From Candidatus Freyarchaeum deiterrae (lineage in GTDB: Archaea > Asgardarchaeota > Jordiarchaeia > Jordiarchaeales > Jordiarchaeaceae), in the NCBI GenBank assembly GCA_037305845.1, contig CP147778.1, forward strand, positions 1 through 64,000: DNA of 64,000 nt. Reading direction: 5' to 3'. Below, in pieces: positions 127 to 8,750 of the stretch. The translations under genes were made by a program, and so were the position numbers. The first letter of the stretch is position 1, and each line of letters begins with the position of its first letter. The notes under the pieces are model-generated. The model searched no databases, had not been told where the DNA came from, and saw nothing but the letters and a program-made list of their open reading frames with translations.

Positions 127-990
127 TTAGGATTGCCCCTTTATCTTCTTATTTTTGTTAATGAACTCTAGGAGTTTTTGTTCCGCTGAGCCAATCGTTG
201 TGGGGAGCGTAGTATCCAACGATAGTTTGTGGTCTGTTTCCAGATCGTGGAATAGTTGTCCAACTATGGGTAGTTTAAGATCATACTTTTCTAGAATTTT
301 GTTATCTGAAAGAACCTCACTGGTCGAGCCAACTGCCCTAATTTTTCCACCGTACATTATGACTGTTCTCTCCGTGATTTGGGGTAGAGTGTTTACATCA
401 TGCGTGGCTATAATGATGGTTTTTCCCTTCGATGATAGGCTCTTTAGAATTTTTATGATGCTCTCTATGTTTTTGGGATCCAGGTTTGCTGTGGGTTCGT
501 CCAGTAAGAGTATGTCTGGTTCCATGGATAGAATGGTGGCGAAGGCTGCTCTTCTCTTCTCGCCGAAGCTGAGATGGTAGGGAGCTTTCTCCGCGCGGTC
601 TGTTAATCCTACGAGTTTTAAAGCCTTCTTAACTCGTTTTTCTACTTCTTCTGGTGGGAAGCCGAGATTCGTGGGGCCGAATGCTACATCGTCCCAGAGA
701 GTGGGGCAGAAGAGTTGGTTTTCAGGGTTTTGAAAAACGTACCCGATTCTTCTTCTTATTTCCTTAAGGTTTTTCTCTATTACCTTTTTTCCGAAAATGT
801 GTATCGTACCCTTGGTTGGTGTAAGGATGCCGTTAATGTTCATGAGCAGGGTTGACTTCCCCACTCCACTAGTTCCAAGGAGTAGAACGGACTCTCCAGC
901 GGATACATCTAGGCTTACATCCATTAGAGACCATGTACCGTCTGGATACTTATAATCCAGATTCTTTACGCTAACCGCTAGCTCAGACAA
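127..990 (-). CDS. cbiO: ECF-type (cobalt/nickel) transporter ATP-binding protein
   Basis: Walker A GTSGVGKST, Q-loop FQNPENQ, LSFGEKRR signature and LLLDEPT Walker B; overlaps cbiQ. Confidence 0.9.
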   Translation of the reverse strand: MSELAVSVKNLDYKYPDGTWSLMDVSLDVSAGESVLLLGTSGVGKSTLLMNINGILTPTKGTIHIFGKKVIEKNLKEIRRRIGYVFQNPENQLFCPTLWDDVAFGPTNLGFPPEEVEKRVKKALKLVGLTDRAEKAPYHLSFGEKRRAAFATILSMEPDILLLDEPTANLDPKNIESIIKILKSLSSKGKTIIIATHDVNTLPQITERTVIMYGGKIRAVGSTSEVLSDNKILEKYDLKLPIVGQLFHDLETDHKLSLDTTLPTTIGSAEQKLLEFINKNKKIKGQS

Positions 991-1924
991 TTAATACCCC
1001 CCAAAATTTTCTTGTAAAATCGGTTATAATATACACCTTTTTTATTACCGAATCTATCACTAAGTAGGAGAAGTAATAGTTGTTCAAAACCGTGAAACGG
1101 AAGGCTAAAAAGTTCATAGCTATTAAGCCGGAAACGAGTGCCAACACGAGAATAAGGAAAGCGACGTCTCTCTTCCTAGTTTTCTGCTGCCTATAGCTTT
1201 CCAGTTTACCAATGTACCCTCTCGAGAGCATGGCATAGTAAACGTTTTCTCCTCTTTCGTATGCTCTTATGAAGAGAGATCCTATCATTTGTCCGACGAC
1301 TTTAATCCTTTTTAGGAAACCCTCCTTTCCGTAGCTCCTCAGGTTTCTCGCCTGAATCATGGAAAGAGCCTCATCGGCAAAGAGGAAGATGTAACGATAG
1401 GTAATTAGAAGGAGCGTTGTGAAGAGTTCAGGCGCACCCAATTTTCTCAGAGCCATAGCTATACTCGAAAACTTGGTGGTTGAAATGAGGAGAATCGCTG
1501 ACCCCGAGGCTATCCACACTCGTGAAACAAAAACTATTGTTCGGTACAGTCCCTCAAAGGAAACCGTTAGATAAGTGTAACCATAAACGTGAATAATGGC
1601 TAAAGGAGTCCCGGTAACTATGAAGGGAAGCGGTAACGCGATTATGAGCGAGAAGAGAGGAATGATAGATGTTCGCACCGCGTATAATTTCAGTGGAATT
1701 CTGGAAAACAAAACCAAAATTGAAAGAATTATAAAGAGAATTCCAGAGAATATTACATTCTCCAATAACACTGCACAGACAATTATTGATACTAGGGAAA
1801 TGAGCTTGACTCTTGGATCCAATCGGTGTATAACGGAGTTTATATCAGTGGTTCTTTCAGTAAGTAGGGTATCCCTGAAAAAAGTCAACAACTCCTCCAT
1901 ACCGATAGGATTCTTCAAAGACAA
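983..1924 (-). CDS. cbiQ: ECF transporter transmembrane (T) component
   Basis: HRLDPRVKL N-terminal motif, multiple TM helices, ARNLRS and AMLSRGY motifs. Confidence 0.9.
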   Translation of the reverse strand: MSLKNPIGMEELLTFFRDTLLTERTTDINSVIHRLDPRVKLISLVSIIVCAVLLENVIFSGILFIILSILVLFSRIPLKLYAVRTSIIPLFSLIIALPLPFIVTGTPLAIIHVYGYTYLTVSFEGLYRTIVFVSRVWIASGSAILLISTTKFSSIAMALRKLGAPELFTTLLLITYRYIFLFADEALSMIQARNLRSYGKEGFLKRIKVVGQMIGSLFIRAYERGENVYYAMLSRGYIGKLESYRQQKTRKRDVAFLILVLALVSGLIAMNFLAFRFTVLNNYYFSYLVIDSVIKKVYIITDFTRKFWGVLIV

Positions 1925-5898: not shown

Positions 5899-5960
5899 TA
5901 TTCTAGTTAGTGTGGAATTGTCAAAAATTGTTAGAGTGTAGCGCCCCTTGCTTTTAGGGG

Positions 5961-6005
5961 GTAGTCTCCTCACGGTCATGGGTTTACCCGTGAGTTTCAT
6001 TCTAC
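5961..6005 (-). promoter_or_regulatory. Candidate eukaryote-type SECIS element overlapping the hdrA-mvhD stop codon
   Basis: Minus strand reads GUAG-A-AUGA-AACUCACGGGU-AAA-CCCAUG-ACCGUGAGGA-GA-CUAC: AUGA/GA core, AAA 11 nt after AUGA, CUCACGG/CCGUGAG helix and GUAG/CUAC basal helix. Confidence 0.7.
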
Positions 6006-8375
6006 AACGCTTGGAACTATTCTTAGTGGGTTGGGGCCGAGCTTGGAAATTTTTTCGGTCATTTCTTTAACCATGTTGGCGAATTTTGTGCCTTCCGCTG
6101 CGGAGCAGTACTCTATTTGAAGTCGCTCTTCTTCTAGTCCAACGGTTTTCATTACCTGCTTTAGGTACTCAACCTGGTTGGCGGCGGCGTAGTTTCCGAT
6201 TTCGTAGTTGCATTCTCCTTTTTGTCATCCTACGATTAGTACTCCGTCTGCGCCTCTGTAGAATGCTCTGAGTATTAGGTCGGGGTGTATCATTCCTGCG
6301 CATCTTACTTTAACGGTTCTTATTGATGGGGGGTATTGGGTTCTTATTGTTCCCGCCATGTCTGCGGCTCCGTAGCCTCATTTCCAGCAGAGAAACGCCA
6401 CTATTTTTGGGAATGATTCTGTCTCCGCGCCGGCTTCTACTTCTAGGAGTGAGTCGAGGTAAGCTTCGAATTGTTGGGGTCGGTAGTATCTTACTGTTAT
6501 GGCTTGAGTGGGGCATACTGAGAAGCATAAACCGCATCCTCTGCAGTGTATGTCTTCGACTTCAGCTTTGCCGTCCTTTTCAACGATGGCACCGTAGGGA
6601 CAGATTGACATGCATTGTCCGCAGCCGCTGCAGAGTTCTTTGTCGACTTGCGCTGAGATAACCTCTATGACGTACATACCTGCGATCATTGGTGAAGCTG
6701 CTGATGAGGCTGCTCCTTTCGCTTGGTAAACTGCTTCCGCTATAGACTTCGGTCCCTGGGATACTCCTGCTAGGTAGATTCCGGGGATTTTTGTTTCTAC
6801 GGGGTTTAGCCTTGAGTGGAACTCTTTAAAGAAGCCGTCGGGGCCTCTCTCCAGTCGTAACATGTTGGCGAGCATATTAGTGGTCTTTGATGGGATTACC
6901 GCCGTGGAGAGGACAACTAGGTCTGCTTCTGTGCTTGTAAGTTCACTGGTGAGGCTGTTTTCGCCTTCAACCACTAGGTTTTTTCCGTTGGAGTAGACTT
7001 CTGTCGGTCTTCCTCGGATGAACTTTATTCCGAACTCTCTGGCTCTTCGGTAGTAGTCTTCGTACTCTTTTCCCGCGCATCTTAGGTCCATGAACCAGAT
7101 TGTGACTTCGATGTCTGGATACTCCTGTTTTATGAGTTTGGCGTTTTTTAAGGCTACCATGCAGCAAACCTCTGAGCAGTAGCTGTTCGTTCTAATGTCT
7201 CTGGACCCGACGCACTGAATCATGACCACGCTCTTGGGTTTTTCACCGTCGGATACTTTTACCAGTTCACCGTTGGTGGGACCGTTGGGTGCGAGAAGTC
7301 TCTCAAGTGTGAGTTGTGTTATCACGTCCGGGTATTTCCCGTAGCCGTATTCGCCTCTCTCTGGAGTGTACACATCGTAGCCGGTTGCAACAATGATTGT
7401 TCCGACTTCTAGTTCTATTTCTTCTTCCTTCTGGTTAAAGTCTATGGCTTCTTCCTCGCAAGCCTTTACGCAGAGTCTGCACTTCACGCAGCTTTTCATG
7501 TCGATAAGAGCTTTTTTCGGAACAGCTTGAGCGAAGGGAACGTAAATTGCTTTCCGTGCACTGAGTCCAGAGTTGAACTCGTTCGGCCTGAAGATTGGGC
7601 AGGCTTCCTCGCAGGCTCCGCAACCCGTGCACTTATCCTCTATCACGTATCTGGGCTTCTTTACGACTTGGACGTGGAAGTTGCCTATGTTTCCCTCGAT
7701 TCTCTGTACCTCGGCGTTCGTTATCAGCTTCACCTTTTTGTTGTTTGCAACCTCAAACATTTTTGGGCCCAATATTCATATTGAGCAATCGTCTGTGGGG
7801 AAGGTTCTGTCTAGCTGCGCCATTTTTCCACCTATAGTGGGGCTCTTCTCCACCAGGTAGACTTCGAATCCGTCGTTCGCAAGGTCGAGGGACGCTTGGA
7901 TTCCGGCGACCCCTCCACCGATAATGAGAGCCTTCTTTTCAACGGGGATAACCATGGTGGCTATTGTTTCAAGGAAGGCGGCTCTGGATACAGCGGCTCT
8001 CACTAGGTCCTTTGCCTGTTCGAGGGCTTTTTCTGGTTGATTCATGTGGACGAATGAGACGTGTTCGCGGATGTTTACGAACTCCAGCATTCCCGGGTTT
8101 AGTCCAGCTCCCTCAAGTATGGTTTTGAAAACCGGCTCGTGAGTCTTGGGGGTGCAGGCTGCGACAATCACTCTGTTGAGATTGTTCTCATCTATTTTCT
8201 CTTTGATGAACTTTGCACTAGCCTCGGTGCACATCGAACCCTGAGTCTCTGAAACAACCACATTCTTCAGTTTAGATGCGTACTCTTTCAGTGCCTCAAT
8301 GTTTATTGTCCCTGCTATGTTAATGCCTCAACCGCACACAAAAACGCCTATGCGAATATCTTGTTGCTCTGTAAT
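5997..8375 (-). CDS. hdrA: Heterodisulfide reductase subunit A fused to MvhD/VhuD; selenoprotein with 4 in-frame UGA (Sec) codons
   Basis: One frame from ATT 8375 (SD GGAGGT upstream) to TGA 5997. In-frame TGAs at 8328-8330 (RIGVFVCG-U-G), 7776-7778 (TDDCSI-U-ILGPKM), 6378-6380 (FLCWK-U-GYGAAD) and 6225-6227 (GVLIVG-U-QKGECNY), all at conserved Cys positions. Also GGGVAG FAD motif and ferredoxin motifs. Confidence 0.9.
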
Positions 8376-8750
8376 TTTTTGGGCACCTCCTTTTTTCTTT
8401 AATAAGTGCCTAAGTTCTTTAATAACTAACTATAAAGGTTCTAAAACACACAGAACTAATGCTTATAAATAAGCTTTCCTACCGCTCTTTTCATTTCTCT
8501 AAAACGAAAAAACTTTAATGACTAATATCCAAGCTCTGAAATTGATGGAGGTGCCACTAAGTAGAGAGGCACATTTGCATCAATTTTACTTTACTAGTAT
8601 TCCTTTTTCTCCCAGCTAAAAATTAGTCCAAAGGGATTTACTTTCCTTACTGAATAAATGTTTACCTTTTTTGTTTTCACAGAGTGTAAACGCTTATCTG
8701 TCTTTAAAGAAAAAGAAGGAGTGTTTGAATGAATGTCGCATGAGCTGAGT

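Follow-up and report, generated by a model that had tools for sequence, protein, structure and literature searches.

HdrA proteins with up to four selenocysteine (Sec) residues, distributed over five possible positions, and VhuD proteins with two were published in 2016, together with tandem hdrA/vhuD genes in which one shared selenocysteine insertion sequence (SECIS) serves up to six UGA codons over about 2 kb (PMC4989117). Sec-containing HdrA and MvhD were reported in Jordarchaeia in 2021 (PMC9723677), and the paper describing the genome studied here (Valentin-Alvarado et al. 2024; PMC11291895) names HdrA among the selenoproteins and also describes a tRNA-Sec, numerous introns in tRNA genes, SECIS elements of eukaryote-like type and the Sec pathway. 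The present analysis concerns a locus at 5997-8375 on the minus strand of the first 64,000 nucleotides (bases 1-64000, hereafter the window) of contig CP147778.1, the single 3.58-Mb contig of Candidatus Freyarchaeum deiterrae. The results indicate that this locus is very probably one functional gene of Freyarchaeia, which encodes a type Ia HdrA with four UGA-encoded Sec residues and a fused MvhD/VhuD domain.

Reading frame, domains and UGA sites

When TGA was translated as Sec (U), the frame yielded 792 residues with no TAA or TAG, four internal TGA codons at residues 16, 200, 666 and 717, and a TGA terminator at codon 793 (5997-5999). In the standard list of open reading frames (ORFs), the same stretch is split into 7776..8261, 6378..7772 and two short C-terminal pieces (6310..6537 and 5997..6152). 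Gene callers fail on its four UGA codons and apparent AUU start, which is why the gene has appeared in fragments. An earlier note, made from the DNA sequence alone, had described the locus as a hidden HdrA-MvhD fusion lying in one frame broken by TGA only, shown as pieces in the ORF track and carrying each TGA where HdrA or MvhD has a conserved Cys. This core reading was supported by homology, by the alternation of TGA and Cys among relatives and by the Sec machinery of the genome. The positions of all features are given in Table 1.

Pfam analysis revealed HdrA-type FAD (flavin adenine dinucleotide) and ferredoxin domains over residues 148-627, and, after these, a complete PF02662 (FlpD/MvhD) match that covers residues 658-780 (E 7e-46; profile positions 1-123 of 123). 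Homology to HdrA extended over the full length of that protein: residues 6-636 aligned with residues 3-642 of Methanothermococcus thermolithotrophicus HdrA (5odc_A; 739 bits, E 5e-221), similar alignments were obtained with 9sfi_A, 8rvu_a and 7bkb_A, and the C-terminal 140 residues matched the MvhD chain 5odc_D with 139 bits. The cofactor motifs, read in the translation and the alignment, were intact, namely the GxGxxG FAD site, CVGSRD...CSxVCC and four CxxCxxCxxxCP-type motifs. In addition, the N-domain set of four Cys and the equivalent of Cys197 were complete, with Sec occupying positions 16 and 200.

The four TGA codons lie in the motifs CGU, DCSIU, CWKU and GUQKGEC, and the last two are separated by 51 codons. 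All four fall on Cys columns that are invariant or nearly so in 36-37 relatives: columns 14, 16, 49 and 74 are invariant Cys/Sec, and columns 666, 692, 717 and 722 are near-invariant. Borrarchaeum, Culexmicrobium and the Cys-type paralogues in the same genome have Cys at all four columns, and three of the four sites correspond to X (Sec) in Methanococcus maripaludis chains (DDCAMX of 9sfi_A; CYQX and GX of 9sfi_K). The relatives carried Cys or TGA at these sites, which is the alternation that the earlier note had proposed to look for. Genome-wide recoding of TGA was ruled out, as TGA ends 20.6% of the ORFs of at least 300 amino acids; it is an ordinary stop codon throughout the genome, and the recoding is therefore local and not the mark of a variant genetic code. 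The four internal UGA are predicted, with high confidence, to be Sec codons. A Sec at the canonical HdrA site (DCAIU/DCSIU) was also observed in contigs of Deltaproteobacteria/Thermodesulfobacteriota (L027-L029), in the first HdrA module of double-HdrA proteins.

Table 1. Predicted features of the fused hdrA-mvhD locus (window coordinates).
Feature	Position	Strand	Evidence
Predicted fused HdrA-MvhD selenoprotein coding sequence, 792 codons + TGA stop	5997..8375	-	Translation, domains, structure alignments, dN/dS
Shine-Dalgarno-like GGAGGTG	8384..8390	-	Read from sequence; same motif and place in genus-level orthologues
Putative non-canonical start ATT (AUU), 8 nt after the Shine-Dalgarno-like motif	8373..8375	-	Inferred from conserved position
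HdrA N-terminal iron-sulfur domain, residues 1-135 (Cys14, predicted Sec16, Cys49, Cys74)	7971..8375	-	5odc_A alignment, four invariant Cys/Sec columns
UGA, predicted Sec16, N-terminal CxU	8328..8330	-	Aligns to Cys13 of 5odc_A; column Cys/Sec-invariant in 36 relatives
Thioredoxin-reductase-like FAD domain with FeS motif CVGSRD...CSEVCC and inserted 2x[4Fe-4S] ferredoxin domain	6681..7943	-	Pfam Pyr_redox_2, Fer4; 5odc_A
UGA, predicted Sec200, canonical HdrA Sec site DCSIU	7776..7778	-	Cys197 of 5odc_A; X in 9sfi_A
C-terminal 2x[4Fe-4S] ferredoxin domain of HdrA	6456..6662	-	Fer4 family matches, residues 575-627
Linker in place of HdrA stop codon and spacer of tandem relatives	6405..6455	-	Junction comparison across loci
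MvhD/VhuD (FlpD, PF02662) domain	6036..6404	-	Pfam, 5odc_D alignment
UGA, predicted Sec666, first VhuD-type Sec (CWKU)	6378..6380	-	Aligns to X in 9sfi_K
UGA, predicted Sec717, second VhuD-type Sec (GUQKGEC)	6225..6227	-	X in 9sfi_K; column Cys/Sec-invariant in 37 relatives
Putative Loki/eukaryote-type SECIS	5961..6005	-	Conserved structure, covariation, consensus fold
Second conserved hairpin directly after SECIS, CCCCU/AGGGG	5944..5960	-	Covaries in orthologues (UCCCU/AGGGA)
Oligo-T run, candidate archaeal terminator	5923..5927	-	Read from sequence, inference

SECIS element and selenocysteine machinery

Just 3' of the coding sequence, the minus strand carries a predicted structure with the features of the Asgard eukaryote-like (loki) type I SECIS, for which the analysis required AUGA ahead of a stem of about 9 nt, an apical loop of 11-12 nt with adenines towards its 5' end, and GA or AA behind the stem. 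Its kink-turn layout is that of the eukaryote-like SECIS of Lokiarchaeota, in which AUGA precedes a stem of 9 bp, the A-rich loop has 11 nt and the stem is followed by GA (PMC4989117). In the window, helix 1 (GUAG/CUAC) is followed by an AAU bulge and then GA, which together give AUGA, and the element runs in the order AUGA, AACUCACGG, GUAAACCCAUGA, CCGUGAGGA and GA. Helix 2 is a 9-nt stem with CUCACGG/CCGUGAG as its Watson-Crick part; the apical loop, GUAAACCCAUGA, has 12 nt and begins with GUAAA, a loop type found in some Asgard hdrA/frhD genes (PMC11227280), and GA follows the stem. A compensatory change (G>A with C>U) in orthologues produces CUCACAG/CUGUGAG, and distant lineages have unrelated SECIS stem sequences in which 7-9 of the 9 pairs are retained. 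The RNAalifold consensus recovered helix 1, helix 2 and the second hairpin. Under one fixed definition, a SECIS followed 18 of 20 Sec-type loci and none of 10 Cys-type loci, and it occurred in 0.35% of shuffled sequences. In the Rfam scan of the window, no family reached its gathering score, and no SECIS model did so on this element. The putative role of this structure would be to direct Sec insertion.

The AUGA core (6000-5997) holds the stop codon of the gene itself, and the same arrangement was found in the second Sec-type pair of this genome and in two other lineages. A stop codon inside AUGA has been described for a Loki VhuU gene, where UGA termination close to the SECIS is explained by a minimal-distance rule (PMC4989117); extended to the present gene, this rule may account for its terminal UGA. 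The fifth UGA would act as a real stop, presumably because the SECIS cannot stay folded under a ribosome. A second hairpin was observed directly after the SECIS in many Asgard lineages, with stems that covary and that include CCAU.../...AUGG types; it receives no mention in the SECIS passages of PMC4989117 (2016) and PMC11227280 (2024).

The search for Sec machinery, which was among the checks set out in the earlier note, detected EFSec/SelB at 806658 (295 bits, above its cut-off), SepSecS at 808225 (437.8 bits), PSTK at 801874 and SelD at 2457962 (219.6 bits), the last itself with an in-frame TGA. The genes for PSTK, EFSec and SepSecS are clustered at 0.80-0.81 Mb, and beside them, at 810418-810533 (-), lies a tRNA-Sec candidate with a CUUCAAA anticodon loop (UCA anticodon) and a long variable arm. 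Decoding of the UGA codons would follow the archaeal/eukaryotic route through PSTK, SepSecS, SelD, EFSec and tRNA-Sec, with a single kink-turn-type SECIS at the 3' end of the mRNA serving UGAs up to about 2.3 kb upstream. The resulting protein would have two Sec in MvhD, at the methanococcal VhuD positions, one at the canonical HdrA site and one at the N-terminal CxC site.

Alternative explanations

Several observations weigh against the reading as a fused selenoprotein gene. Sec insertion at the four sites is a prediction, and the PSTK match (216 bits, E 7e-64) lies under the NCBIfam curated cut-off of 290.5. The tRNA-Sec candidate has about 28-34 nt inserted in the D-arm, which lowered its score in a local permissive scan to 27 bits, where Rfam sets 47 as the gathering score; ARAGORN called tRNA-SeC(tca) once a 28-nt D-loop insertion was removed, the acceptor and T arms are imperfect, and a whole-genome RF01852 scan, with 150 of 290 candidates scored, gave no match. 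From the upstream stop to the conserved RIGVF strand, the frame contains none of the codons ATG, GTG and TTG. The gene has no adjacent gene for HdrB/HdrC, a hydrogenase or a formate dehydrogenase in its neighbourhood, in agreement with the earlier note on hdrB/hdrC and hydrogenase, and gene order around the orthologues is loosely kept. As no partner gene is adjacent, the reaction of the protein is described in general terms only. With regard to the tRNA search, ARAGORN reported 9-17 tRNA genes only for the 3.58-Mb genome, a count that is uninformative because the genome is intron-rich and that is consistent with widespread unusual tRNA introns.

The alternative that survives best is that the UGAs are read through without being decoded, or without always being decoded, as Sec, with Cys or another residue inserted by a near-cognate or mis-acylated tRNA, for example under selenium scarcity. 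The predicted status of Sec at the sites and the score of the tRNA-Sec candidate below the Rfam threshold would fit such a scheme, as would the Cys-type paralogues, which show that the family works with Cys. However, the Sec pathway is complete and clustered, with a SelD that itself contains UGA, the SECIS is confined to TGA-bearing loci, and the solved methanococcal chains have a modelled Sec at three of the four sites. Read-through of this kind was judged improbable.

Conservation in the closest relatives bears on a second possibility, a decaying fused HdrA-MvhD pseudogene with four nonsense mutations. Orthologues in the metagenome-assembled genomes Freyarchaeota SQRJ_82 and Jordarchaeia RPF2 share 79-80% protein identity with the window gene and keep all five TGA codons. 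From codon 17 onward, the synonymous difference from these two orthologues was 0.55-0.79 per segment, and the ratio of nonsynonymous to synonymous divergence (dN/dS) was about 0.08 (0.06-0.27 per segment where computable), also after the last UGA; codons 1-15 are too few for dN/dS scoring. In those first 15 codons (8331-8375), the synonymous difference from orthologues (pS) was 0.05-0.15, against 0.6-0.7 elsewhere, with weak statistics given the 15 codons involved; the low value suggests nucleotide-level constraint near the start and the first UGA. The gene callers' output of fragments only, and the presence of five further HdrA paralogues able to take over the role, are what decay would predict or permit. 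Against this, every interruption is a TGA on an invariant Cys codon, the same four TGA persist in orthologues despite near-saturated synonymous divergence and purifying selection extending past the last TGA, the orthologues carry no frameshifts or other stop codons, and a covarying SECIS lies directly 3' of the gene. A pseudogene is very unlikely.

The same holds for translation that ends at the first UGA, with the downstream pieces made separately by re-initiation, for example at the ATG at 7760. The gene start is relevant here. As the frame has no canonical start codon, AUU initiation was inferred, and an AUU start behind the Shine-Dalgarno-like motif is probably the simplest reading: 6 loci at the level of the genus keep ATT (ATA in one relative) in this place. 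One relative has a stop codon immediately before AAA-ATT. The first UGA thus occurs 16 codons past the putative AUU and 2.3 kb from the SECIS, and Prodigal calls an ATG-initiated ORF at 6378-7760, as re-initiation would have it. However, the pieces would split the FAD and MvhD domains into incomplete folds, conservation of the protein sequence covers the 15 N-terminal codons as well as the domain from UGA16 to UGA200, and the same first-site UGA is present in about 17 Asgard loci. Re-initiation is accordingly given a very low probability, and a single selenoprotein chain remains the preferred reading.

Distribution and origin of the fusion

The distribution of the four sites was investigated in 301 Asgard genomes, with the four columns tabulated in the best loci. 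Matches with 4-6 TGA were frequent, and the U/U/U/U pattern, including the N-terminal CxU, occurred in about 17 tabulated loci from at least five families. An N-terminal Sec is therefore common in Asgard archaea and not exceptional. The earlier note had called four Sec in one fused chain, the N-terminal site included, unusual; this did not hold for the N-terminal CxU and the four-Sec pattern, and it did hold for the fusion of a Sec-type pair, which is lineage-specific. An uninterrupted junction with a conserved linker was present in 4 genomes, all from the genus of the window, and in no other Sec-type locus inspected. In the other Sec-type loci, hdrA stops with TAA or TAG and vhuD begins a few codons further on, often in the same frame. 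Many tandem Loki-type loci (L059-L072) were seen to have the TAA/TAG stop of hdrA and the start of vhuD in frame and 5-8 codons apart, from which it follows that one stop-codon substitution would fuse the two genes. Candidates for a fusion that carried 1-3 TGA and came from other Asgard families were rejected, since they are Cys-type tandem pairs in which a TGA is the hdrA stop.

An error of assembly or sequencing, in which a lost base or stop joined hdrA and vhuD, would agree with the separation of these genes in all other Sec-type Asgard lineages inspected and with the passages of PMC4989117 and PMC11227280 that call them 'always' neighbour genes and mention no fusion, yet it is extremely unlikely, as the identical uninterrupted junction and conserved linker peptide recur in four genomes of the genus that were assembled independently, purifying selection acts on the linker segment and the genome is curated and complete (PMC11291895).

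Beyond the genus, the closest relatives of the fused gene were tandem hdrA-vhuD pairs with 53-55% identity. Phylogenetic analysis of the HdrA part revealed that the four fused Sec genes form one clade (support 100), sister (99) to tandem Sec pairs from two other genomes of the same genus, and that both nest in a 99-supported tandem Sec-type clade, separate from the Cys-type fusions. The tree came from a quick maximum-likelihood search with SH-aLRT (Shimodaira-Hasegawa-like approximate likelihood ratio test) support only, with some long branches unreliable, and rows L043, L044 and L078 (partial or duplicate) were left out. The topology indicates that the fusion is a recent event within one genus, derived from a tandem hdrA-vhuD selenoprotein pair, and it would have arisen when the stop codon of hdrA was lost together with the spacer. 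Type Ia HdrA is held to have arisen repeatedly through MvhD fusion (PMC12054007), and a fusion restricted to a single genus fits this view.

The genome encodes six HdrA paralogues, the window gene included. The other five comprise one tandem Sec pair, one unfused Cys-type HdrA with a separate MvhD gene about 2 kb downstream, and three Cys-type MvhD fusions. The second Sec-type pair, at genome positions 1247498-1249944 (+) (L038, L043), has an hdrA with 2 UGA and an mvhD with 1 UGA in another frame; this mvhD has Cys at the second VhuD site and is followed by its own SECIS, the AUGA of which includes the stop codon. A short MvhD-like fragment at 2752991-2753248 (-) (L045, L053), broken by TGA, TAG and TAA, is probably a gene remnant.

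Genomic context and predicted function

The neighbours of the gene in the window encode a TPR (tetratricopeptide repeat) protein, ORFs without assignment, a radical-SAM protein, a URO-D-family protein and a CbiQ/CbiO pair. When six neighbouring proteins were compared with the orthologous contigs, no match was obtained, and the CbiQ/CbiO pair is the sole recurring feature of the neighbourhood: a CbiQ/ABC-ATPase pair lies downstream on the same strand both in the window (127-1924, -) and in an orthologous contig (L024:4044-6774, with CbiM), and it looks like an ECF (energy-coupling factor)-type Co/Ni transporter. The genome has about 19 CCG-domain proteins, which are potential partners, and the nearest CCG-domain match is about 492 kb off, among the matches listed. 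A CCG-domain (HdrB-like) gene lies immediately upstream of two of the three fused Cys-type paralogues, and the window gene has none there. As no CCG-domain gene is nearby, the product is classed as an HdrA homologue by sequence and domains and not as a proven heterodisulfide reductase.

On the basis of its domains, the protein most likely serves as the core of flavin-based electron bifurcation (or confurcation), with MvhD built in as the module for electron entry, and its partners would be HdrBC/HdrD-like and donor modules encoded elsewhere. In HdrA, Cys197 of one protomer helps to ligate the partner's N-terminal [4Fe-4S] cluster, which lies along the route to ferredoxin (PMC9012536), and the M. 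maripaludis structure shows density linking Sec197 to a Cys, between FAD and the N-terminal cluster (PMC13518236). It is conceivable, as a tentative and rather unlikely proposal, that Sec16 and Sec200 of the partner protomer meet at one site, which would place two selenium atoms in the low-potential branch. Should the Cys linked to Sec197 correspond to the cysteine of the CxC motif, the Asgard enzymes, the fused form included, would have such a site, perhaps as a cluster with two selenolate ligands or as a relay through a diselenide; if true, this would mean, together with the Sec pair of MvhD, that both entry to and exit from the bifurcating flavin are selenium-tuned.

HdrA's N-terminal domain was also compared with MvhD. 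Profile alignment by hhalign gave E 0.004 with a probability of 8%, pairing Sec16 with Sec666 and Cys74 with Sec717; pairwise BLASTP and Pfam were negative for homology between the two. This weak profile match suggests, as a lead, that the two domains may be homologous.

Comparison with known systems

The analysis recovers a 792-residue redox enzyme that had been hidden as fragments, and the same is expected in every related genome. The published annotation (PMC11291895) has SRVP-Freya_8 at 6378-7760 (-), which is the middle fragment, assigned as hdrA2/arCOG02236; in the parts of its gene table that cover this locus, the hdrA2 fragment only is listed, as opposed to the 792-residue model, and metatranscriptome reads are recorded on that fragment in the corresponding part of the supplement. 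The locus would also provide a case in which one eukaryote-like SECIS acts on four UGAs over 2.3 kb of one frame, with a fifth UGA in the SECIS core terminating translation. As a fusion on a dated branch within one genus, it illustrates how type Ia HdrA may arise from tandem hdrA-vhuD, and a single-chain construct could make it easier to study, by expression, the Sec-ligated Fe-S sites of electron bifurcation. The locus is of value chiefly for the corrected gene model and as a clean example; the current view of Sec decoding or of Hdr is unchanged.

With respect to the methanococcal proteins, the window gene aligned over the full length with HdrA (738-739 bits) and VhuD (134-139 bits) of Methanococcus maripaludis and other Methanococcales (9sfi, 5odc; PMC13518236), and Sec is present at the same three columns in 9sfi_A/9sfi_K. 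At the N-terminal CxC site, where the window gene has a predicted Sec, a Cys is present in HdrA of the methanococci. Moreover, the methanococcal subunits are separate polypeptides, encoded with hdrBC/vhu partners in a methanogen, and their SECIS is of the archaeal GAA_A type according to the passages of PMC4989117 on that element.

The HdrA2-type fusions of type Ia (Methanosarcina, Archaeoglobus; PMC12054007, PMC2702500) have the same domain order, HdrA followed by a C-terminal MvhD. Those inspected, three in-genome paralogues and four relatives, have Cys at all four positions, and no report of a Sec-bearing type Ia fusion was found in the literature search. On the HdrA tree, the window gene falls within the clade of tandem Sec-type genes and not with these Cys-type fusions.

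The closest described counterparts are the tandem HdrA/VhuD of Lokiarchaeota (Mariotti et al. 2016, PMC4989117; Huang et al. 2024, PMC11227280), which belong to the same families. The Asgard tandem loci have matching Sec columns (the N-terminal CxU, the site near 200 and two VhuD sites 51 codons apart), and the Loki pairs likewise have one SECIS 3' of the VhuD part, with UGAs about 2 kb upstream, a similar SECIS (AUGA...GA core, 9-nt stem and A-rich loop of 11-12 nt) and a tolerated UGA stop beside or inside it. The window gene differs in that the hdrA stop and spacer are gone, which places four predicted Sec in one 792-residue chain, whereas the passages of PMC4989117 and PMC11227280 on these genes give hdrA and vhuD/frhD as neighbours, with no fusion mentioned. 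It also differs in a SECIS loop that begins with GUAAA instead of AAAAA and in having no canonical start codon. The gene is a fused version of the known Asgard multi-Sec HdrA/VhuD with a Loki-type SECIS, and not a new kind of system.

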